Sequence record: OQ067374.1
DNA: 64,000 bases
Reading direction: 5' to 3' (one strand)
From: Escherichia phage a20
The translations under genes were made by a program, and so were the position numbers. Under the pieces are notes generated by a model. The model had not been told where the DNA came from, did no database searches, and saw only the letters and a program-made list of their open reading frames with translations. Within the stretch, counting starts at the first letter, position 1. Each line of letters opens with the position of its first letter. Below are positions 5,661-58,364 of the stretch, piece by piece.

Positions 5661-6377
5661 ATGAATTATAACTCAATATACGAAAAGCTTATCACCAATG
5701 CTAAATCAAGAAGTTTAGATGGTTATACAGAACGTCATCACATTATACCACAATGTTTAGGTGGAAGTGATGATGCTTTAAACTTAGTAGACTTAACACC
5801 GGAAGAACATTATTTGGCACATCAACTGTTGGTAAAAATCCATCCAGATAATGCCTCTTTAATATATGCCGCTCGTATGATGACCATATCATCTCCTAAA
5901 GCAGATAGAAGCAAAAACAAATTATTTGGATGGCTTCGACGTAAGAATCAAGAAGTTCAAAAGAATAAAGAATTCACTGCTGAAACCCGTAAGAAAATGT
6001 CCGAGTCTGCAAAAAATAAACCAAAGATTACCTGTCCACATTGTGGTTTAACTGGAACTGAAGGAAACATGCGACGTTGGCATTTTGATAATTGTAAACA
6101 AGGTCCAACGCCTAAAATAGTAAAACTTGATCAAGAAACAAAAGATAAAATAATTAAAACCATGGCCACGAAAATTTGGAAAGAAGATTCTTGCCCGTTT
6201 TGTGGCTTAACTACTAAGTTATCGGCGTTAAAGCCACATATAAAATTCTGTAAATCAAATCCTAACAGAAAGAAAAAAGAGGACAAGAAAATTAAATGTC
6301 CTCATTGCGATAAAATAGGGATCCCTGCTAATATGCATCGTTGGCATTTCGATAATTGTAAATATAAGCCTCATTAA
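5661..6377 (+). CDS. HNH homing endonuclease with three C-terminal zinc-finger-like repeats
   Basis: N-terminal HHIIPQCLGGSDDALNLVDLTPEEHYLAH (HNH motif); repeats CPHCG..RRWHFDNCK, CPFCG..HIKFCK, CPHCD..HRWHFDNCK. Confidence 0.85.
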   Translation: MNYNSIYEKLITNAKSRSLDGYTERHHIIPQCLGGSDDALNLVDLTPEEHYLAHQLLVKIHPDNASLIYAARMMTISSPKADRSKNKLFGWLRRKNQEVQKNKEFTAETRKKMSESAKNKPKITCPHCGLTGTEGNMRRWHFDNCKQGPTPKIVKLDQETKDKIIKTMATKIWKEDSCPFCGLTTKLSALKPHIKFCKSNPNRKKKEDKKIKCPHCDKIGIPANMHRWHFDNCKYKPH

Positions 6378-9628: not shown

Positions 9629-9801
9629 TATCCACATAGTACACCGTACAGAGGCTCATTTGAACTTTTAAATCGAATGGGCTTGTACGTAATAGTTCCT
9701 TCGGCTTTAGCTTTATCATAAGACTCTTTAAAACGTCTCGTTCTTTCTGCTTTGCCTTTACGGATTTTATCGAAATTTTCAGAAGTCGGGATGTTCGTCA
9801 T
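9628..9801 (-). CDS. Hypothetical small basic protein (57 aa)
   Basis: ORF MTNIPTSENFDKIRKGKAERTRRFKESYDKAK... with SD GAGAGGTG; below ORF-track size cutoff. Confidence 0.45.
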   Translation of the reverse strand: MTNIPTSENFDKIRKGKAERTRRFKESYDKAKAEGTITYKPIRFKSSNEPLYGVLCG

Positions 9802-11998: not shown

Positions 11999-12064
11999 AT
12001 TATTTTCCTCGGTTATTTTATTATCCAACGAGAGAATTATACTCATCTCTCAAGAGTTTGTATA

Positions 12065-12304
12065 CTATTTTTTAAGCATGAAAAGTAAGTAATTTGTATC
12101 ACGTGGAGTAATATCAACACCCATATCAAAGATGCCTTTATAGATTGGGTATTTGTTTTCGGTTGTATCGAAGCTGAAACTATTTCCATCACAACTAACA
12201 GTAATAGCATCTGTTAAAATGTCATACTCAATCCTAACAATTGAATCCCCAATTTTAACGTCGAGGTGTTTTTTGAATTTGATAAAATCTAATTCTTGGG
12301 CCAT
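12065..12304 (-). CDS. Hypothetical protein
   Basis: 79-aa ORF. Confidence 0.6.
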   Translation of the reverse strand: MAQELDFIKFKKHLDVKIGDSIVRIEYDILTDAITVSCDGNSFSFDTTENKYPIYKGIFDMGVDITPRDTNYLLFMLKK

Positions 12305-26893: not shown

Positions 26894-27158
26894 ATTATTC
26901 ACCAATTAAAGTTTCAACAAAATTCACCAAATCATTCTGACGAGCATCAACCTGATTTCTATAAAAATTAAATAAGATCCATTTCACAGGTCATTTTACC
27001 ATACTCGCTTCAATAAGATTCATTACACCATTTACCATGTTATACGTAAACATCGGATAATTGTATTGTACTACAACATAAGCGATAAGCAAAAGTTTCA
27101 TTTTGTTCTCCATTTGTTTTGGTAGGACTACTATAACATAGTCCTACCAAGTTGTAAA

Positions 27159-27365
27159 CTACCGATTGTGTTTTAAATGTTGATAAAGTTCTTCAACTTG
27201 TTTAGGGTCCAAAACAATTAAGTCATTTTCTTGACGAAGATAAATCCATCCCTTATCCCCAGGGCCATTTTTACAAAACATCGCCACCATATCATCATCT
27301 TCAGCGCTTTCAGGTAAAAGTTCAAGTACACCGTCTTCAGATTTTCCAGTATAATCGTAAAGCAT
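27159..27365 (-). CDS. Hypothetical protein
   Basis: Start at ATG 27365 (MLYDYTGK) with SD GTGAGGAT, 8 nt after upstream stop. Confidence 0.5.
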   Translation of the reverse strand: MLYDYTGKSEDGVLELLPESAEDDDMVAMFCKNGPGDKGWIYLRQENDLIVLDPKQVEELYQHLKHNR

Positions 27366-27372
27366 AATATCC

Positions 27373-27552
27373 TCACATAATCTCGTTAACATACATTTGC
27401 AATTCGGTGTGGGCATCAGCCATCTTTTTCATAGCTCTGTTAATGTCGATGTCTCCATCTTCGCAACCATGAGCATTTTCCCAATCAGATACCGCATTAG
27501 CGTACTCTTCAATCAAAAACATTAACTTAGAAATTTTTTCTTTACGTGTCAT
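27373..27552 (-). CDS. Hypothetical small protein (59 aa)
   Basis: ATG 27552 (MTRKEKISKLMFLIEEY) with SD GAGGAGAA; ORF-track TTG start lies inside the duplication. Confidence 0.5.
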   Translation of the reverse strand: MTRKEKISKLMFLIEEYANAVSDWENAHGCEDGDIDINRAMKKMADAHTELQMYVNEIM

Positions 27553-27756
27553 AACGTTCTCCTCTAGTAAGTAAGGTTTACTATAACACAACCTGAGGAG
27601 AAGTAAACTGATAGATGCCAAAAAGCCCCTACTCTTCAATCAAAAACATTAACTTAGAAATTTTTTCTTTACGTGTCATAACGTTCTCCTCTAGTAAGTA
27701 AGGTTTACTATAACACAACCTGAGGAGAAGTAAACTGATAGATGCCAAAAAGCCCC
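27503..27756. repeat. Perfect 127-bp tandem duplication (2 copies) of promoter/SD/5' gene-end/terminator-stub cassette
   Basis: 27503-27629 and 27630-27756 identical base for base on my reading; no flanking microhomology. Confidence 0.9.
27580..27608 (-). promoter_or_regulatory. T4-early-type promoter (GTTTAC-N17-TATAGT); second copy at 27707-27735
   Basis: Minus-strand GTTTACttctcctcaggttgtgtTATAGT; upstream arm TTCTCCTC complementary to downstream SD GAGGAGAA. Confidence 0.45.
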
Positions 27757-27774
27757 AACCTTTCGGAAGGGGCT
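27745..27774 (-). terminator. Rho-independent terminator downstream of rI
   Basis: Minus-strand AGCCCCUUCCGAAAGGUUGGGGCU followed by UUUUU. Confidence 0.6.
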
Positions 27775-27780
27775 AGTAAA

Positions 27781-28083
27781 TTAGATAGATGTAGGCTCTA
27801 ATTTTATTTTCATGAACTCGGCAAATTGTCTGGCAGTTTTTATGCCTTGTTCGTGACATTCAAATGCATCATCACAGGGGCTATTTTTGTAATGCTTTGC
27901 CATATACTTATAGAATTTTTCAGAATTCTCGACATTTTGAATTTCAAACAAAGTATATACGTTTTTAATCCCTGATTCCATAAAGTTATCAAAATATGGG
28001 TCGATATATGCAGTACCAACGATAGGAGTTGTTGCTGCAAAAAACCCCAGCATCGCCATGACAGCTATCGCTCTTAAGGCCAT
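27781..28083 (-). CDS. rI: Lysis inhibition regulator RI-like membrane-anchored protein
   Basis: 100 aa, MALRAIAVMAMLGFFA anchor, DPYFDNFMESGIKNVYTLFE...YKNSPCDDAFEC resembles T4 RI; position upstream of tk. Confidence 0.7.
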   Translation of the reverse strand: MALRAIAVMAMLGFFAATTPIVGTAYIDPYFDNFMESGIKNVYTLFEIQNVENSEKFYKYMAKHYKNSPCDDAFECHEQGIKTARQFAEFMKIKLEPTSI

Positions 28084-29109: not shown

Positions 29110-29333
29110 TTAGGTTCACCTTCTTTAACGAAATCTGGGTAAGGGTAAAATCCTGAGTAAAACCCTTCACCTTTATGATTGCTACAACCTTTGTTTGAAC
29201 AGTAACACCAATAATCAAAATCACAGGCCATTTCGTCATTGCATAGAGCAAATACTACAGGCCATTCACACTTTTCGCATTTAGCGCCTTTAATAATTTT
29301 TGTTTGACTCATAACCATTTGACCTGCATGCAA
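29106..29333 (-). CDS. Hypothetical Cys-rich protein
   Basis: 75 aa with multiple Cys pairs. Confidence 0.5.
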   Translation of the reverse strand: MHAGQMVMSQTKIIKGAKCEKCEWPVVFALCNDEMACDFDYWCYCSNKGCSNHKGEGFYSGFYPYPDFVKEGEPK

Positions 29334-29521
29334 TATTCTTCGACATGCTTTTTACGACCTTTCTTATCAATAAAGGTATATTCCATAAAGCGTCCATGAT
29401 AACGACGTTCAACATCGTGAGGGGTGTTAATAGGACACTTAGTCTGACGAATTTCTTCCCATTCACGAATAATAACTGCTTTATTCTTTGGGTCATACGG
29501 GTGAGGATAATGCACATTCAT
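29309..29521 (-). CDS. Hypothetical protein
   Basis: Start probably at MNVHYPHPYD; preferred over overlapping frame 29290-29517. Confidence 0.45.
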   Translation of the reverse strand: MNVHYPHPYDPKNKAVIIREWEEIRQTKCPINTPHDVERRYHGRFMEYTFIDKKGRKKHVEEYCMQVKWL

Positions 29522-30015
29522 AACAATGGTTCCCAATCAACAATCACAATTTCTAGTTTAGTGGAATATGTATCAAGAATTTCTTCAATGATATCCCAGT
29601 TTCCACCACCTATACCTGCTCCAATTCTTGGCATGTAAATCACAGGCTTTGCTATCTTATTCTTTCCGAATTTATTTAATTCTATTATACAATTCATTAA
29701 AGCAGAGTACTCAAAATTAGGTCCGGGCTCAAACTGTGTATAAAGATTAAAGCAATAAGCTTTATGGGTCTTAAAATATTTTTCATAAACCGAATAGGAA
29801 CCGAGTTTAGACTCGTCTCCGAATTCGGTTTGAAGTTTATCGGCTTCTAAAATTTTTGGATAAGCCTTTGCTAATTGGCCTGCTACACCGGCGCCCATTG
29901 TATGAAAACAATTACACCCATGAGCAATATTATTACCTTTAGAAAACAGGGCGACAATATCGCCCTTGATATAGTTTTTAATCACTTGCTGCAAGTCCTC
30001 TATTATAAGAGTCAA
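29518..30015 (-). CDS. Macro-domain-like protein (putative ADP-ribose binding/hydrolase)
   Basis: NIAHGCNCFHTMGAGVAGQLAKA resembles the macrodomain NAAN...GGGVAGAL signature; 165 aa. Confidence 0.6.
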   Translation of the reverse strand: MTLIIEDLQQVIKNYIKGDIVALFSKGNNIAHGCNCFHTMGAGVAGQLAKAYPKILEADKLQTEFGDESKLGSYSVYEKYFKTHKAYCFNLYTQFEPGPNFEYSALMNCIIELNKFGKNKIAKPVIYMPRIGAGIGGGNWDIIEEILDTYSTKLEIVIVDWEPLL

Positions 30016-33452: not shown

Positions 33453-33782
33453 TTATACTCTAGGCTTTTGAGCTTGTTTGGTATTGGATTCCCATGCGGC
33501 TTTGGTAATTTTGTTAGCGGCATAACCAAAGGCATTAGATAGAACACCTTTAGAGTTGAATACATCCAATCCAATAAGTACACCGGCTGTGTTAAATTTA
33601 GGAGCAAAGTACGCATTAGTTTTAGAAAGAGCTTTTTTCAATTCAGGGTCTTGAACCAAGCCATCAAAAACGCCTTTACTATTTACTTTGTATGTTACTT
33701 TGGGATTTTTACCTTCTTCGATAGCAGCTTTCTGTTCCGCAGATAATGTAACTTCAGTGATAAACTCCTGATATGTTTTCAT
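33453..33782 (-). CDS. Internal-protein-like (capsid-targeting N-terminus MKTYQEFITE)
   Basis: N-terminus matches T4 IP capsid targeting sequence MKTYQEFIAE; variable C-terminus. Confidence 0.7.
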   Translation of the reverse strand: MKTYQEFITEVTLSAEQKAAIEEGKNPKVTYKVNSKGVFDGLVQDPELKKALSKTNAYFAPKFNTAGVLIGLDVFNSKGVLSNAFGYAANKITKAAWESNTKQAQKPRV

Positions 33783-33807
33783 TTTGTTCCTATTGTTTTA
33801 ATTTATG

Positions 33808-34122
33808 TTATTCTTTAGGGAAGTTTTTAGAGTATGCATCATAAAGTTTATTACCAATACGACGGAAGACTTTAGCTGCAAAACGGTTTTCAGGGTTTTT
33901 AATCATGATTTGCATCATGTAAGTTCCTGCATCCGAAAGAGCTTCTTCATAGTACCCATTAATTTCTTTAAGAGTCCTACGTTTACCACCAGGACCGTCA
34001 ACAGTAATTTTCCATTTACCTGTAGAAGTGCGGCTCGGTGGCTCAACTTGTTCAATCCAAATATAACCACCTTCAACGCGTTGGTTGGCGGATTCTGCAA
34101 TAAATTCTTTATACGTTTTCAT
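33808..34122 (-). CDS. Internal-protein-like (MKTYKEFIAE N-terminus)
   Basis: CTS-like N-terminus; early promoter GTTTAC-N18-TATAAT upstream. Confidence 0.7.
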   Translation of the reverse strand: MKTYKEFIAESANQRVEGGYIWIEQVEPPSRTSTGKWKITVDGPGGKRRTLKEINGYYEEALSDAGTYMMQIMIKNPENRFAAKVFRRIGNKLYDAYSKNFPKE

Positions 34123-34185
34123 TTTTGTTTCCTTGTTTGTTTTGATAGAGTAATTATACCATATTAATACTTAAGCGTAAACAAT

Positions 34186-34446
34186 TTAAGCTTTACCGCC
34201 AGAAATAATTCCGAAGTTGTTAAAATCATATCCAATATCGTCAACATCTACTTTAGGACTTGCTACAACATAAGCAATTTCACTACGTTTTGCATAGGTG
34301 TTGATTTCTTTACCATCGCCACCTAAGAAAGAATACCCATTACGTTTTAATGAGCCAAAGTCTTCCGCATCACCAATGAAAGCTTTAACTTTAAATTTAG
34401 GACCTTTGGCATCTGCTTCAATGATAAATTCTTGATACATTTTCAT
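34186..34446 (-). CDS. Internal-protein-like (MKMYQEFIIE N-terminus)
   Basis: CTS-like N-terminus, 86 aa. Confidence 0.65.
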   Translation of the reverse strand: MKMYQEFIIEADAKGPKFKVKAFIGDAEDFGSLKRNGYSFLGGDGKEINTYAKRSEIAYVVASPKVDVDDIGYDFNNFGIISGGKA

Positions 34447-34452
34447 TTTTCC

Positions 34453-34866
34453 TTAGTAAATTGATTTACCATAGTATTTGTACCAAGTCGGACGTTGAGC
34501 AATTTTTTCATCTAAGCGTGCTTGACTTATCGCAATGGACGCTTCGGACGGGACATAATTATTACGAAATTCGGCAGGGATGTCGGAAATATCCTGGACT
34601 GTCGTGTCCTTGATTTTGAAACCACGTTTCAAACATTCAGCGATTAGCTCGATTTGACGTAAACGTAAAAATTCGAGTTTGTCGTAAAAGAATGTTACGT
34701 GACCTGTGCCTAAGATAAATGTTGGAGAGATTTTAAAATCCTTTACACGTTTACCGTTTTGAACATGTTTACGGACTGCACCAAATACGCGTGGTAATTC
34801 ACGATACTCAGCCATAAGATGTTGGTCGGACAGTTCAGAAACAAGTGTTAAATTGATACGAGTCAT
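34453..34866 (-). CDS. denV: Endonuclease V (pyrimidine dimer DNA glycosylase) DenV
   Basis: [34 protein letters not shown]... matches T4 endo V; ATG 34866 with SD GGAGGAAA. Confidence 0.92.
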
Positions 34867-34893
34867 AATTTCCTCCAAGTAGTTGATGAATGT

Positions 34894-34922
34894 ATAGTAT
34901 CAAAGTCCTTGGAGGAAGTAAA
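34894..34922 (-). promoter_or_regulatory. T4-early-type promoter (GTTTAC-N17-TACTAT) nested in 10-bp inverted repeat that includes the denV SD
   Basis: Arms TTCCTCCAAG (34870-34879) / CTTGGAGGAA (34908-34917). Confidence 0.45.
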
Positions 34923-34924
34923 CA

Positions 34925-35206
34925 CTATTTTTCTGAAGCGCCTGAAATATATTTTTCAAGACGTTGTTTCATTAGCGAGCCGTTCTTAGCGATTTCTTCC
35001 GGTTTATCGCACATACGCAACAATGCTTCAAGCTTAACGATATCGCTGGTGCGCTCAAATTTGCGAGTGTCTATCTTACTAGCAAGTTCAGAAATACGTG
35101 CTAATAGACTTTCAGCTTCAACCAAAGCTGCACCTAGCTTAGTTGCAAATGTGTCAGTAGCTTCATTAAGAATAGATTCTGATAAAAATTCACTATATGT
35201 TTTCAT
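34925..35206 (-). CDS. Internal-protein-like ([11 protein letters not shown]-terminus)
   Basis: CTS-like start at ATG 35206; helical C-terminal region. Confidence 0.6.
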
Positions 35207-36886: not shown

Positions 36887-37368
36887 TACCAGCCTTCCAT
36901 AGGGAATTCCAGATAAACTTGGGCATTGACACGAATTTCATTGGTAATCTTTTTAACTCGGTCTGTATTACGAGATACACGTCCGAACCAACGCCATCCG
37001 TTACTAATTGCACGAGAACCAGTGTGCCATGTTTGCCAATCAAACTGAAGAAGAGTACGATCTGGAGCTTCCCATTCAGTGTTTAAACAACAAACAGACC
37101 ATGTAGGAGCAACGAAATCGGTGAATCTAATATCATGGTCTGCAACTAGTTTAGCAATAGCTCCGATATCATGAATCATAATACCTGGGGCTAATAAAGA
37201 TTTTCTGCTATGGCTAGCCGTTTTCTCGGTGGTCTCATAAGAAGACGACCAGTACCATTTACGTCCAGTTGCAACATATCGTAATGAATCAACTAAAGAC
37301 GTAGGTGGATTTACCTTATCTCGGAACTCTTCGAACATTGAGTCAATATCATTATTTTGGTTTCGCAT
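36886..37368 (-). CDS. Hypothetical protein
   Basis: Start at ATG 37368 (MRNQNN) with SD AAGGAG; Trp-rich. Confidence 0.55.
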   Translation of the reverse strand: MRNQNNDIDSMFEEFRDKVNPPTSLVDSLRYVATGRKWYWSSSYETTEKTASHSRKSLLAPGIMIHDIGAIAKLVADHDIRFTDFVAPTWSVCCLNTEWEAPDRTLLQFDWQTWHTGSRAISNGWRWFGRVSRNTDRVKKITNEIRVNAQVYLEFPMEGW

Positions 37369-37417
37369 GTTAACTCCTTTATTATCCAAAAGGAGGACCG
37401 GAGTCCTCCGTATTATT

Positions 37418-38010: not shown

Positions 38011-38081
38011 TATTATTACCTTTCAATTGGTGGTTTATTATCCAACGAGAGCATTATACTCTGCTCTCAAGAGTTTGTAAA

Positions 38082-38309
38082 TTATTTTTTAATCAAATTG
38101 ACATAAAACTTGGCGTCTTCGGGGTGCATGCCTTCGCAGTATTCTTCAACCATGAACTTCTTAACAGCTTCATAAGGACCACTCAGATTAAGCTCAGTTG
38201 TCCAGAACTTGGAATCTTGGACTGAATCGATACGAACTTCAGGGTGTCGGTTGCGAATAACTTCTTCGGTGTATTCATAATCAACGACATCAATACTAAC
38301 TTTAGCCAT
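38082..38309 (-). CDS. Hypothetical acidic protein
   Basis: 75-aa ORF. Confidence 0.55.
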   Translation of the reverse strand: MAKVSIDVVDYEYTEEVIRNRHPEVRIDSVQDSKFWTTELNLSGPYEAVKKFMVEEYCEGMHPEDAKFYVNLIKK

Positions 38310-38355
38310 TTTGTTTTCCTCTTGATTTGATAGGACTACTATAACATAAACTTAC

Positions 38356-38520
38356 TTAGATGTAAATTATTTCAACGTCACCTTTAGCTGCTTTATAACC
38401 TTCAGCCCAAGATACAACAGAGTTTTTATCTGAGGATTCAAATTCAGGCATTGGACTTTCACCAATATTCACACAGTATGTTTCTTCATTTTCATCGAAC
38501 CAAATAATTAAAGTAGTCAT
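38356..38520 (-). CDS. Hypothetical small protein (54 aa)
   Basis: ORF MTTLIIWFDENEETYCVNIG... with SD GAGGAG; below ORF-track cutoff. Confidence 0.45.
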   Translation of the reverse strand: MTTLIIWFDENEETYCVNIGESPMPEFESSDKNSVVSWAEGYKAAKGDVEIIYI

Positions 38521-38588: not shown

Positions 38589-38894
38589 TTAATTTTTCCA
38601 ACTTAACAACTTGTAGTGTCCTTCATTCATACGTGGTTTATCCCAAGAAATACTAATATATGATTCACTGTCAATAGAAATCGCCGGGTTTTTCTCTACC
38701 GTAAGACCTTCACTTTCCAGCCATTCAATAGTATTTGCGCATAAATCGGAAGAACACCTCATCGGGAACCGGCAAGATTTTTCACCTTTAGCTGCAGTGT
38801 TATACATCTTTTCTAAAATACGCTTTTGCACGTTTTTAAAAATAGTTTCAGCAGATTCTTCAGATTTTTTATTCAGTTCAGTGTAAAGACTCAT
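38589..38894 (-). CDS. Hypothetical protein
   Basis: 101-aa ORF. Confidence 0.55.
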   Translation of the reverse strand: MSLYTELNKKSEESAETIFKNVQKRILEKMYNTAAKGEKSCRFPMRCSSDLCANTIEWLESEGLTVEKNPAISIDSESYISISWDKPRMNEGHYKLLSWKN

Positions 38895-38982
38895 AATATT
38901 CTCCTCTGTGGTTGATAAGTCTATAGTATCATGTCCTTAGAAGAAGTAAACATCTTTATGAAATATTTTTATGCCCTAGATG

Positions 38983-39011
38983 CCAAAAAGCCCCAACCAT
39001 AAGGAAGGGGC
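38983..39011 (-). terminator. Rho-independent terminator (repeat family)
   Basis: Minus-strand GCCCCUUCCUUAUGGUUGGGGC followed by UUUUU. Confidence 0.55.
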
Positions 39012-39017
39012 ATTCTA

Positions 39018-39482
39018 TTATTTAATTTGTTTAGCAGACCAGATACGGTCTTTAATAAGTTTTTGGATATCTTCAACATACTCAAGGCTATGAGCGTGAG
39101 GATTATCTTTGAAGCTATGTGCTCGTGCCAGTTTCTGTCCTTCTGTTTTGATTACTAAAAGCTCTTTAAGAATTGCTTCATACTTAGAAATAATTCCTTT
39201 GGCGATATTTTTTTCTTGAGCTGCTTTAGGGTCCGCTTTTGGCGCAGGTGCTTTACCTGTAGCTTTCTGGAACAATTCACCTGATGCAGCTAGGCTTTTA
39301 AAAACTCGGCTAACAGTATTAGCATTAGTAAAACCTTCGGCTTTAAAATCTCTAATAAAACGGAAACGTTCTTCATCAGAGGCGTCTTTGTAAGAATATT
39401 TACCTGCTTGAATTGCTGCAATCGCAGCGGCTTTTACATCTGAACTAGATTGTTCAGTCAAAAATTCAGCGTATGATTTCAT
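39018..39482 (-). CDS. Internal-protein-like (MKSYAEFLTE N-terminus)
   Basis: CTS-like N-terminus; 154 aa, Lys/Ala-rich. Confidence 0.6.
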   Translation of the reverse strand: MKSYAEFLTEQSSSDVKAAAIAAIQAGKYSYKDASDEERFRFIRDFKAEGFTNANTVSRVFKSLAASGELFQKATGKAPAPKADPKAAQEKNIAKGIISKYEAILKELLVIKTEGQKLARAHSFKDNPHAHSLEYVEDIQKLIKDRIWSAKQIK

Positions 39483-39526
39483 GTTGCTTTTCCTAAGTTA
39501 ATTAACTTATCTATTTATTATTATGC

Positions 39527-39555
39527 CAAAAAGCCCCAACCTTTCGGAAGGGGCT
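39527..39555 (-). terminator. Rho-independent terminator (repeat family)
   Basis: Minus-strand AGCCCCUUCCGAAAGUUGGGGCU followed by UUUUU. Confidence 0.55.
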
Positions 39556-39599
39556 AAGCCTTGCGGCAACCTTGTCGGGGTTTCCACCTGCTAAGGCAA

Positions 39600-39860
39600 G
39601 TGTTTGTACGAAACGCCGGGATTCGAACCCGGTTATTAAGCAGTTGACGCTACTCAATATTTTTAAAAGGCCATATCTCGACCATATCCGAACGTTCCGT
39701 CAAAAACGCTACTCGGCTTACGGCAAAGATATTTCCTCGAATCGATAATTCTGTGCGCCGTTTCTGCTGTGATGTAAGGGGATATTAACAAATCGTAAAG
39801 ATTTATTAAGACCAGTCCTTACTCAGGGAACATCAGTCCGACGACTTACCGGTAGCGACC
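39600..39860 (-). ncRNA. Candidate stable small RNA / tRNA-like locus
   Basis: 385-bp ORF-free gap next to tRNA cluster; CCGGGUUCGAAUCCCGG T-arm motif at 39616-39632; no full cloverleaf found. Confidence 0.3.
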
Positions 39861-39867
39861 CGGCTTC

Positions 39868-40212
39868 TTATTTTGGCATATCATCAATTTGCTCTCGACG
39901 CCGACGCCATAGATTAATCGCTTCATTAACACATTCGGCGTTTGGTATATGACGGCAATAATATAATGATTCGCGTTTCTGGAATCGATGTTGCAATGGG
40001 ATTTCGTTTAAAAGGTCTTTACGGTCAAAGTATTCAAAACTAGTTAACCCGTAACGATTTTTAATGAACTTCCAATGTCCAAATTCATTTTGAACATAAA
40101 TGTAATCGGCATGCTGATACAGCGAATTAATCAATCGATGAGAAATAACTGTATCATATTCGTTAAAATAAAACGTTAAATCATGAACTACCAGATAAAT
40201 ATTGCCTTTCAT
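39868..40212 (-). CDS. Hypothetical protein
   Basis: Start at ATG 40212 (MKGNIYLVVHD) with SD GAGGAAAAT; ORF-track start would overlap tRNA-Arg. Confidence 0.55.
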   Translation of the reverse strand: MKGNIYLVVHDLTFYFNEYDTVISHRLINSLYQHADYIYVQNEFGHWKFIKNRYGLTSFEYFDRKDLLNEIPLQHRFQKRESLYYCRHIPNAECVNEAINLWRRRREQIDDMPK

Positions 40213-40230: not shown

Positions 40231-40306
40231 TGGTCGAGACAGAAGGATTCTAACCTTCAACCTACGGATTAGAAGTCCGTTGCTCCATACAATTGAGCTA
40301 TGCCTC
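40231..40306 (-). tRNA. tRNA-Arg (anticodon UCU), CCA encoded
   Basis: Hand-folded cloverleaf: acceptor CGAGGCA/TGTCTCG, anticodon stem ACGGA/TCCGT, loop CTTCTAA, T-arm GAAGG-TTAGAAT-CCTTC. Confidence 0.8.
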
Positions 40307-40312
40307 GAATAT

Positions 40313-40386
40313 ATGACCCAGACCAGATTCGAACTGGTAACCTTTCCCTTATGAGGGGACTGCTGCTAACCATTGAGCTACAGGGC
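40313..40386 (-). tRNA. tRNA with anticodon CAU (Met or Ile2), CCA not encoded
   Basis: Hand-folded: T-arm ACCAG-TTCGAAT-CTGGT, anticodon loop CTCATAA, acceptor with one U-U mismatch and one G-U. Confidence 0.65.
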
Positions 40387-40448
40387 CTAAATAACTTTCT
40401 ATTATGAAAGGCACTTTAGAGCACCTTTGGTAATAGAGGGTACGAATT

Positions 40449-41637: not shown

Positions 41638-41844
41638 TTACCCACCTTTTGCAATTTTATCCATAACGATAGCGATTAAGCCGATTAGAAATGCTACTAC
41701 CAATGAGATAGAATTTTCTGTTGTTGTCAGTAGTCCACAAATGAATCCTACAAACATCGAAAAACTAAAAGCCATTGAAGCAATTACTACAGCAACATTA
41801 CGAATCAGTTCAGCGCGTTTCATTTTATTTCTCCATTTACTCAT
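41638..41844 (-). CDS. Hypothetical small membrane protein
   Basis: 68 aa with two hydrophobic helices. Confidence 0.55.
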   Translation of the reverse strand: MSKWRNKMKRAELIRNVAVVIASMAFSFSMFVGFICGLLTTTENSISLVVAFLIGLIAIVMDKIAKGG

Positions 41845-41860
41845 TTGTTTTGATAGGACT

Positions 41861-41890
41861 ACTATAACATAGTCCTATCAGCATGTAAAC
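41861..41890 (-). promoter_or_regulatory. T4-early-type promoter (GTTTAC-N18-TATAGT) inside perfect 10-bp inverted repeat
   Basis: Arms GATAGGACTA (41852-41861) / TAGTCCTATC (41870-41879) flank the -10. Confidence 0.45.
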
Positions 41891-41893
41891 TAC

Positions 41894-57705: not shown

Positions 57706-58364
57706 TGACTGTACTTAATACAAAGGCGGGAGTTATTTCCCGTCATGCTGATTTTTTGAATTACAGAAAAAATCCAGCTCAAATTGATGTTTTAAACAAC
57801 CAAGCTGTAGGTTCCGTGACTATTTCTCAGTTAGCTCGCGGTTTTTATGATGCTAACGTAGAATCTGCAATAAATGATGTCCATAATATGGCACGAGCTG
57901 ATATTGGTACTGTTGTCACAAACACTTCAGGCGTATCGCCTGAAGGTACAGCACAAGTTGATTATTGGACTTTTTCTGGTGATGTTCTCGACGATACTTT
58001 GACCACTGGAACGCCAGTCGTTATTAACGTATTTGGACTTGCTGTTAAAGCAACAATCGGTATGACTGATAACGAATTAACGGCACAAGTTCGTATAGCT
58101 TTACAAGAAGCCATTGCTAATCAAATCGCTATTTCTTCTTATAAAGACCATCCATCCGAAGGTAATAAACTTCAGGTGACATATTTAGATAACCAACGTC
58201 ATGTGTTGCCAACATATGCTTCGTTTGGTGTAACAATTTCGCAAGAAATTTTGTCTGAAGCAAAATCCGGATACGGAACATGGAATTTATTAGGTGCCCA
58301 AACGGTTACTCTTGATAACCATAGTACTCCTACCGTTTTCTACCACTTTGTGAGAGCCTCATGA
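57705..58364 (+). CDS. 11: Baseplate wedge / tail pin protein gp11
   Basis: ATG 57705 overlaps gene 10 stop; [17 protein letters not shown]...[14 protein letters not shown]...TPTVFYHF matches T4 gp11. Confidence 0.9.

Follow-up and report, generated by a model that had tools for sequence, protein, structure and literature searches.

Three copies of a terminator hairpin and the gene cassettes beside them in a T4-type Escherichia phage

We describe here a G+C-rich hairpin that is present in three near-identical copies in a 64,000-nucleotide stretch of DNA from Escherichia phage a20 (OQ067374.1). This whole stretch is referred to below as the window. The copies, at sites that we call A, B and C, have the anatomy of transcription terminators, and comparison with related phages makes it likely in our judgment that they double as short portable homology at the edges of small gene cassettes. 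Elements of this type are known as promoter-early stem-loops (PeSLs) and have been described in RB49/phi1 (Arbiol 2010, PMC2839356) and in PST/T4 and nt-1/KVP40 (Comeau 2014, PMC4122927). The window comes from a Mosigvirus, that is an RB69-like phage of the T4 type, its best database match is Escherichia phage BEU50, and we have taken gene names from annotated relatives.

Three copies of one hairpin

The three sites, and the gene that lies between the second and the third, are as follows.

27742–27774, minus strand: site A terminator, with rI on one side and a mobD.2a-like gene on the other (hairpin 27752–27773, U5 27747–27751, GGCAU flank 27742–27746)
38980–39011, minus strand: site B terminator, after a 154-aa open reading frame (ORF) (hairpin 38990–39011 with loop UUAU, U5 38985–38989, GGCAU flank 38980–38984)
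39018–39482, minus strand: 154-aa internal-protein-like gene, the cassette cargo (phrog_2280, a family to which no function is assigned)
39523–39555, minus strand: site C terminator, ending the tRNA/rnaD/rnaC unit (hairpin 39533–39554 with loop GAAA, U5 39528–39532, GGCAU flank 39523–39527)

The motif ATGCCAAAAAGCCCCAACC-N4-GGAAGGGGC occurs in full at these three sites, compared with an expectation of zero full hairpin patterns for the window. Its 19-mer ATGCCAAAAAGCCCCAACC has exact plus-strand matches starting at 27742, 38980 and 39523 and a further match, with two mismatches, at 27615. The mean for shuffled sequence is 0.05 matches, and none of 100 shuffles reached the observed four. All genes around the sites are on the minus strand, and in the minus-strand RNA sites A and C read GCCCCUUCC-GAAA-GGUUGGGGC-UUUUU-GGCAU, with site B the same except for its UUAU loop. 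Each full copy is predicted to fold, in the order GCCCC-UU-CC-loop-GG-UU-GGGGC-UUUUU-GGCAU, into an outer stem of five G-C pairs and an inner one of two C-G pairs, with a 2x2 U.U internal loop between them and a tetraloop at the tip, and the U5 tail follows at once. Taken by itself the hairpin has a minimum free energy of −13.0 to −13.9 kcal/mol; when folded in 51-nt contexts the value is −16 to −17.7 kcal/mol. A first-pass annotation of the sequence had proposed such hairpins at three minus-strand gene ends, with these loops, tail and flank, together with a truncated half inside a tandem duplication. All of this was borne out, the truncated half being the 3' arm and tail at 27615–27629, which close the first unit of a duplication at site A.

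At all three sites the anatomy is that of an intrinsic terminator, in which a G+C-rich hairpin of seven pairs runs directly into U5 at the end of a transcription unit. The hairpin lies 7 nt past the stop codon of rI at site A and 6 nt past that of the 154-aa ORF at site B, and at site C it follows rnaC. In T4 the orthologue of site C is a hairpin just below rnaC. The RB69 orthologues of sites A and C are listed as TransTerm terminators, at 58141–58162 ('mobD.2a<--rI') and 74086–74107 respectively (Nolan 2006, PMC1524935, Additional files 3 and 6), and site B is annotated as a terminator in GenBank records OL960576 and MK373782. From this anatomy and these third-party predictions we infer that A, B and C are Rho-independent terminators.

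A simple terminator scan of the window, whose stem rule bars internal loops, did not list the three hairpins, and it was replaced by an RNAfold scan for a hairpin followed by a T-run. The latter gave further credible terminators on the minus strand, with stems that begin at 9654, 14670, 37409 and 61443. Since their sequences are unrelated to those of A–C, the identity of the three copies is not imposed by terminator function. Rfam searches at gathering and E-value thresholds matched only two tRNAs and gave no match for the hairpin or for rnaC/rnaD.

Gene content and loop alleles at the hairpin in related phages

Sequences from related phages were anchored on the hairpin and their intergenic regions aligned. 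T4 has an empty site, with a single orthologous hairpin in the order rnaC-hairpin-GGTATCTAAGCC...-e.8 (flank GGTATCTAAGCCTTTCC). In SF the order is rnaC-hairpin-(late box, 154-aa ORF, second hairpin)-GGTATCTAGGCC...-e.8 (flank GGTATCTAGGCCTTTCC), and the downstream intergenic regions of the two phages align end to end. An insert of ~540–560 bp, made up of a late promoter, an internal-protein-like gene and a second hairpin, is found at the T4 empty site in SF, in EC121 and in the lineage of the window, so that presence and absence of the cassette go together with duplication of the hairpin. The EC121 example, in T4's own genus, is a 559-bp cassette of the same place and design with a perfect late box TATAAATA. 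ChristianSchoenbein has two cassettes in tandem, one with the 154-aa gene and one with an ORF149c-like gene, and the hairpin ends each of them. In the window, sites B and C are direct repeats 543 bp apart that bracket the 154-aa gene (repeat family D10).

In RB69 the gene behind this hairpin is also internal-protein-like but is not the same one. Homology between RB69 and the window breaks off at 38906 and is picked up again precisely at 39528, where the A5 run of the site C hairpin begins. Between these breakpoints the window has 621 bp (promoter, site B and 154-aa ORF) against 1201 bp in RB69 (e.8, ORF148c and ORF149c). The left breakpoint falls within a repeated promoter/5' untranslated region element (family D3, 38901–38931), just downstream of the −10 box of the site B promoter. 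Because RB69 has kept the rnaC-side stem and the AGTTTGAATC flank, it looks like a tandem of the ChristianSchoenbein type that has lost its first cassette via a crossover in the hairpin. When loci from phage records and IMG/VR were clustered, the rnaC-side flank of site C was found joined to five different downstream flanks.

The tetraloops serve as markers for the individual copies, as the alleles differ by three to four bases. In RNA sense their distribution is as follows.

Loop GAAA: site A in the window, RB69, BEU50 and L033; site B in AV111 and EC121; site C in most phages, T4 included
Loop UUAU: site A in L021 and L049; site B in the window, BEU50, SA79RD, APCEc01, AV109 and JM17; site C in JM17
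Loop UUAC: site A, not seen; site B in SF, DCP548, KAW3E185 and p000y; site C in KAW3E185 and ChristianSchoenbein

It is implausible that the same multi-base allele arose independently at different sites, and the copies thus exchange sequence, a trade that would proceed by crossover or by gene conversion. As a separate matter, convergence was considered as the source of the identity among the three copies within this genome and is ruled out by their common flanks and common multi-base loop alleles.

It could be argued that the hairpins are ordinary terminators without any role in recombination, site B having come with its cassette and site A from a single ancient duplication nearby. In favor of this, the family is limited to three copies, A and C occupy unchanged positions in all the relatives examined, a homology of 27–34 bp is short, and terminators are intergenic by nature. 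We nevertheless consider this account unlikely. The RB69 breakpoint is inside the terminator, at the junction of tail and stem, rather than merely close by; the comparison of T4 with SF and EC121 shows cargo bounded by a duplicated hairpin; and loop alleles that are common to A, B and C in different phages require exchange between the copies.

If, as we favor, the hairpins act as portable homology, site C would be the ancestral copy, a conserved terminator behind the tRNA-rnaD-rnaC unit that is present in T4 too. This hairpin would have been the place where cassettes, each made up of late promoter, internal-protein-like gene and a hairpin copy, were gained, lost and exchanged. The phage's own homologous recombination between hairpin copies is the most likely means, and we infer that this would include excision of cassettes as circles and their re-integration, for which the RB69 and T4 arrangements and the allele exchange between copies are indirect support. 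The homology available would be the 27–34 bp of hairpin, tail and flank; T4-type recombination is reported to need less than 50 bp (Singer 1982, as cited in PMC2839356). The expected outcome would be direct hairpin repeats round the cargo, the arrangement of B and C round the 154-aa gene.

The first-pass annotation had suggested that the elements spread by recombination and mark the boundaries of exchangeable gene cassettes, and had proposed a check in related T4-like genomes. In RB69, T4, SF, EC121 and ChristianSchoenbein the motif is present and brackets variable gene content, and its role as a cassette boundary is seen in the empty site of T4, the single cassettes of SF and EC121 and the tandem of ChristianSchoenbein. 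The loop alleles common to different sites and the RB69 breakpoint in the hairpin point to recombination as the probable means of spread. The overall reading is therefore supported, with three refinements: the family has only three copies per genome (BEU50, the closest full genome record, has exactly three and no more), the promoter element at site C is of the late and not the early type, and the idea has already been published as the PeSL model (PMC2839356, PMC4122927).

Two Dhakavirus phages, UGJNEcP3 (L183) and WG01 (L184), have a shorter hairpin downstream of their 154-aa homologue. In WG01 it reads GCCCC-GUCU-GGGGC followed by U6-GG, and the UGJNEcP3 copy is degraded. The short WG01-type hairpin, an outer stem without the inner UUCC/GGUU, looks like a deletion derivative of the same terminator. 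Across Tequatrovirus, Mosigvirus and Dhakavirus the locus provides a natural series of empty, single, alternative and double cassettes.

Promoters, cargo and neighboring sequence

The features around the three sites are listed here in order of position.

27373–27552, minus strand: mobD.2a-like ORF (59 aa, DUF7438), downstream of the site A module
27503–27756, minus strand: perfect 127-bp tandem duplication, units 27503–27629 and 27630–27756 (repeat family D2)
27707–27734, minus strand: promoter of the early type downstream of site A (TTTACT-N16-TATAGT, extended by TGn); a Shine-Dalgarno sequence and the ATG at 27552 come next
27781–28083, minus strand: rI antiholin gene (Pfam PF24205 at 4e-24, phrog_1246)
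38589–38894, minus strand: RB69ORF146c-like gene (101 aa), which the site B module would express
38923–38950, minus strand: promoter of the early type downstream of site B, preceded by A/T-rich sequence (TTTACT-N16-TACTAT; repeat families D3 and D5)
39512–39519, minus strand: box resembling a late promoter, AATAAATA; the 154-aa ORF has its ATG 29 nt further on
39556–39873, minus strand: homologue of rnaC (species 1) and rnaD (species 2), the conserved side of site C
40231–40387, minus strand: tRNA-Arg(UCU) and tRNA-Met(CAU), belonging to the tRNA/rnaD/rnaC unit upstream of site C

The early-type promoter begins 17 nt past the stem at site A and 39 nt past it at site B, in agreement with the earlier claim that two of the hairpins are followed by such a promoter within about 40 nt. 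In both modules a Shine-Dalgarno sequence GAGGAG precedes the ATG (at 27552 and 38894, respectively). Both promoters fit the PST/T4 PeSL consensus TTTACW-N17-TAYWAT (PMC4122927) except for a 16-nt spacer and a G at position 5 of the site A −10 box. They also fit the UP/−35/TGn/−10 description of T4 early promoters (PMC2988021), and the RB69 counterpart of the site A promoter has been predicted as early promoter Pe:58138 (PMC1524935). Because they are joined to promoters of the T4 early type, sites A and B would end one transcription unit and start the next. The transcript that site A would terminate is that of rI. By ending one transcript and starting another, such modules would leave an inserted or deleted cassette transcriptionally insulated.

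The site A module (~116 bp with the duplication excluded) lies exactly where T4 has 1042 bp comprising rI.-1, mobD.5, mobD.4 and mobD.3. Each 127-bp unit has its own copy of the hairpin 3' arm and tail, of the early promoter (which is thereby doubled) and of codons 1–16 of the mobD.2a-like ORF. The duplication junction is inside the hairpin and creates a TAG, leaving a 16-codon ORF fragment. On folding, the truncated copy at 27615–27629 forms no terminator hairpin. Microhomology was looked for at the junction and none was found, and the duplication is absent from BEU50 and from the relatives listed (30 of 164 matching records, with 1271–1277 bp against 1401). It may be real slippage at the hairpin or equally an assembly artefact. 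Its form recalls the 'degraded or half PeSLs' for which recombinational slippage was held responsible by Comeau et al. (PMC4122927).

The earlier annotation spoke of terminator–promoter modules for two of the hairpins, and this holds for the early promoters at A and B; at site C the hairpin pairs with a late-type box and not with an early promoter. The gap between the motif at site C and the ATG of the 154-aa ORF is 46 nt. It contains no −35/−10 pair and no MotA box (TGCTT) of an early or middle promoter, and the late-type box AATAAATA is its only promoter-like element. At the matching position WG01, EC121, L055 and L014 have a perfect late box TATAAATA, and A or T at position −13 is common in these phages (Nolan et al., PMC1524935). 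Site C would accordingly be a terminator combined with a predicted late promoter that may transcribe the cargo gene.

The other side of site C is conserved, the interval 39523–39873, hairpin included, being 92.6% identical to T4 rnaC/rnaD over 352 nt. Some relatives (JM17, KAW3E185_00142) carry a 150-nt 'hypothetical protein' coding sequence annotated over the rnaC/rnaD stretch, which is probably spurious. A further possibility is that the hairpins function chiefly in the RNA, where they would stabilize 3' ends or signal their processing, for instance by setting the end of a tRNA/rnaC precursor or shielding mRNAs from 3' exonucleases, and that this role accounts for their conservation in place of termination or recombination. 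Site C comes immediately after the rnaC/rnaD/tRNA unit (the corresponding T4 genes carry the annotation of small stable RNAs), the site has been conserved between T4 and Mosigvirus, and the loops are often GNRA. Yet U5 directly after the stem at all three sites is terminator anatomy, and hairpin breakpoints and allele exchange would be left unexplained. As the main explanation we regard this as extremely improbable, and it is in any case compatible with portable homology rather than an alternative to it.

The 154-aa protein matched no Pfam family. Its N-terminus, MKSYAEFLTE, agrees with MKTYQEFIAE of T4 IPII/IPIII at 6 of 10 positions and ends in L-T-E, as does a T4 internal-protein leader with its (L/I)-x-E prohead-protease site, and residues 1–43 give a weak match to phrog_7857 (internal virion protein, E = 0.008). 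In T4, leaders of the MKTYQEFIAE type are capsid-targeting sequences. The genes behind the same hairpin elsewhere encode the N-termini MKTYAEFLTE (RB69 ORF149c), MKTYNEFLTE (WG01), MKSYTQFL (EC121) and MYTVNEFLAE (L055). The term 'internal-protein-like', used in the earlier annotation for genes flanked by the modules, is justified on sequence grounds for the ORF between B and C, and its product may be packaged in the head as an internal protein. Several more internal-protein-like genes in the window begin alike (repeat families D7 and D9). At 33453–35206 and 42184 there is an array of such genes in which the first ~30 coding bases are repeated, and these repeated 5' ends could be a second class of recombination joints.

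Other repeats and differences from relatives were seen in the window. A 63-nt early-promoter family has members at 27099–27161, 34122–34184, 38307–38369 and 41830–41892 (62–81% identical to the reference copy); three of the four hold a dyad such as GGTAGGACTACTATAACATAGTCCTACC across the −10 region, and a similar dyad is found in the T4 ipI promoter. Two 62-nt early-promoter regions 26 kb apart, at 12017–12078 and 38034–38095, are 90% identical (repeat family D13) and are a possible further recombination substrate. A 75-nt coding repeat at 6024–6098 and 6288–6362 (71% identity) lies in neighboring paralogous segments that encode Cys/His-rich motifs. An RB69 block of ~3.9 kb (ORF132c to e.5; L003 12086–16043) is missing from the window at 37069–37076, a breakpoint ~320 nt from the terminator at 37392–37409 and so not at a hairpin.

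BEU50 is 97.6–99.3% identical to the window in aligned blocks, and lacks the 127-bp duplication and a 410-bp insert at 29118–29527. This insert is missing from RB69 as well; it lies at the tk.2/tk.4 boundary by RB69 annotation and contains small ORFs, for example 29290–29517. The BEU50 record (OM632671.1; loci L156–L159) is 193 kb long, is flagged UNVERIFIED_ORG and has segments that match others in the same record at 76–80% identity. It has the look of two T4-type phages assembled into one chimera.

Wider occurrence of the hairpin and comparison with known systems

The exact hairpin, AAAAAGCCCCAACC-N4-GGAAGGGGC, is found at 53 IMG/VR loci in at least 25 different flank contexts, some of them G+C-rich and not T4-like in look. 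In bacterial genomes it has 18 matches in 596 Gb, scattered over unrelated phyla. Across the contexts the stem with its unpaired AA/AA step is constant, and the loops vary and are often GNRA. This wider recurrence could reflect spread of the terminator among phages, convergence on a favored design, or recognition by a protein.

The last of these possibilities would make the hairpin the recognition site of a structure- or sequence-specific phage protein, be it endonuclease VII, a recombinase or a nuclease of the homing type, and internal-protein cassettes would be mobilized by this protein in the manner of attC sites. Such a protein was speculated on by Arbiol 2010 (PMC2839356), and the part of Mosig 1998 cited there places GGGC/GCCC at T4 deletion endpoints. 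In at least 25 phage contexts the stem is the same down to its unpaired AA/AA (UU/UU) internal loop, and the terminal loops differ. AA/AA is also the commonest inner dinucleotide pair among the listed matches to GCCCC-NN-CC...GG-NN-GGGGC, with 18 of 89, a hint drawn from a non-independent sample. The 53 matches came from 2.9 million viral contigs, compared with the 18 from 596 Gb of bacterial genomes, and the T4 homing-endonuclease genes mobD and segB adjoin the positions that correspond to A and C. However, no candidate protein was identified in this analysis, the orthologous T4 hairpin is fully paired (GA opposite UU), so that genera differ in the internal loop even at one and the same site, the context and dinucleotide counts are not phylogenetically independent, and T4-type general recombination suffices for the patterns. 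We judge recognition by a phage protein to be highly unlikely. The specific form in which the hairpin is a dedicated attC-like site, with a phage protein reading the unpaired AA/AA (UU/UU) step and shuffling cassettes across T4-type genera, seems to us a distinctly long shot; were it true, it would explain an identical stem with freely varying loops in at least 25 viral-contig contexts.

Several observations weigh against the portable-homology reading that we prefer. A terminator by its nature sits where a gene ends, and boundaries of insertions and deletions are therefore expected to coincide with one at times even without any causal role; termination itself is predicted, from hairpin anatomy and by third parties. 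The common homology of 27–34 bp is at the low end for homologous recombination. Three copies per genome is far below the dozens of PeSLs reported for RB49/phi1, and site C is without the early promoter that is the defining part of a PeSL. The late box alone is weak evidence of a promoter, as AATAAATA or TATAAATA occurs 18 times on the two strands of the 64-kb window, and Nolan 2006 did not predict a late promoter upstream of RB69 ORF149c (PMC1524935). Lastly, part of the recurrence in at least 25 unrelated phage contexts and 18 scattered bacterial genomes may be convergence.

The closest known systems are the PeSLs. Sites A and B, but not site C, share with them the series of G+C-rich stem-loop terminator, early promoter, Shine-Dalgarno sequence and ATG, and the stems of the RB49/phi1 elements are described as 'generally involving GGGG...CCCC' (PMC2839356). 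As with PeSLs, the copies are in hyperplastic early regions, where they bracket small accessory genes that differ between close relatives; crossovers fall within the repeated regulatory element, and degraded or half copies lie beside rearrangements (here the 127-bp duplication). The differences are that there are three copies here and not dozens, that the conserved block is 27–34 bp and not ~100 bp, with the promoter parts in the separate repeat families D1, D3, D5 and D8, and that the promoter at site C is of the late and not the early type. This stem and the Mosigvirus lineage are not covered in PMC2839356 or PMC4122927, and RB69 is not mentioned in PMC2839356. Mini-circle formation and terminator activity have been measured for those PeSLs; for A–C they are predictions from sequence.

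The T-even internal-protein loci are a second precedent. These loci, two of which were analyzed by Repoila 1994 (EMBO J 13:4181), are polymorphic in the account of that work summarized in PMC2839356 and PMC4122927, and the PeSL authors themselves cited both this work and the GGGC/GCCC endpoints of Mosig 1998. In the summarized account, variable genes with a conserved internal-protein leader are exchanged at fixed loci with conserved regulatory flanks, much as cargo with the leader MK(S/T)Y.EF..E is here. The stem-loops of the internal-protein loci, however, are AT-rich, weaker and generally without poly-G (PMC2839356), whereas the present hairpin is G+C-rich and stands directly behind rnaC. 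The T4 rnaC terminator is the orthologue of site C in both position and sequence, with the same U5-GG tail. It differs in being a single copy in T4 56000–78000 (22 kb), with no cassette and with a fully paired stem GCCCCGACC/GGUUGGGGC (−18.2 against −13.9 kcal/mol).

The cassettes are also like the morons of lambdoid phages in being self-contained promoter-gene-terminator units placed between resident genes. Morons are marked by a G+C content unlike that of their host phage and by a presumed non-homologous arrival (PMC1524935), whereas here the boundaries are repeated phage sequence and the cargo is typical of T4-type phages.

Small cassettes that each end in an imperfect hairpin, stand in tandem at one locus and are proposed to move as circles recall the attC cassettes of integrons, though by analogy only. 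Integrons need a tyrosine-recombinase integrase and an attI site, and attC is recognized as a folded single strand through extrahelical bases; neither integrase and attI nor recognition of this kind was found, or is required, at A–C.

The principle at work is thus already published, for PeSLs and for internal-protein loci, and the RB69 terminators and the site A promoter were predicted in 2006 (PMC1524935). The interest of the locus comes mainly from its unusually clean series of empty, single, alternative and double cassettes, and it opens no new question. It presents base by base how small accessory genes of T4-type phages would be swapped while neighboring transcription is spared, with a terminator of 27–34 bp as the joint, and the cargo consists of candidate injected internal proteins, a class that includes anti-defense functions. 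The series would be a convenient system for the mini-circle model of PeSLs, which it extends to a variant that joins a terminator to a late promoter. Seen in this way, sites A–C form a small Mosigvirus-specific set of the PeSL type, with the late-promoter variant at the internal-protein cassette site.

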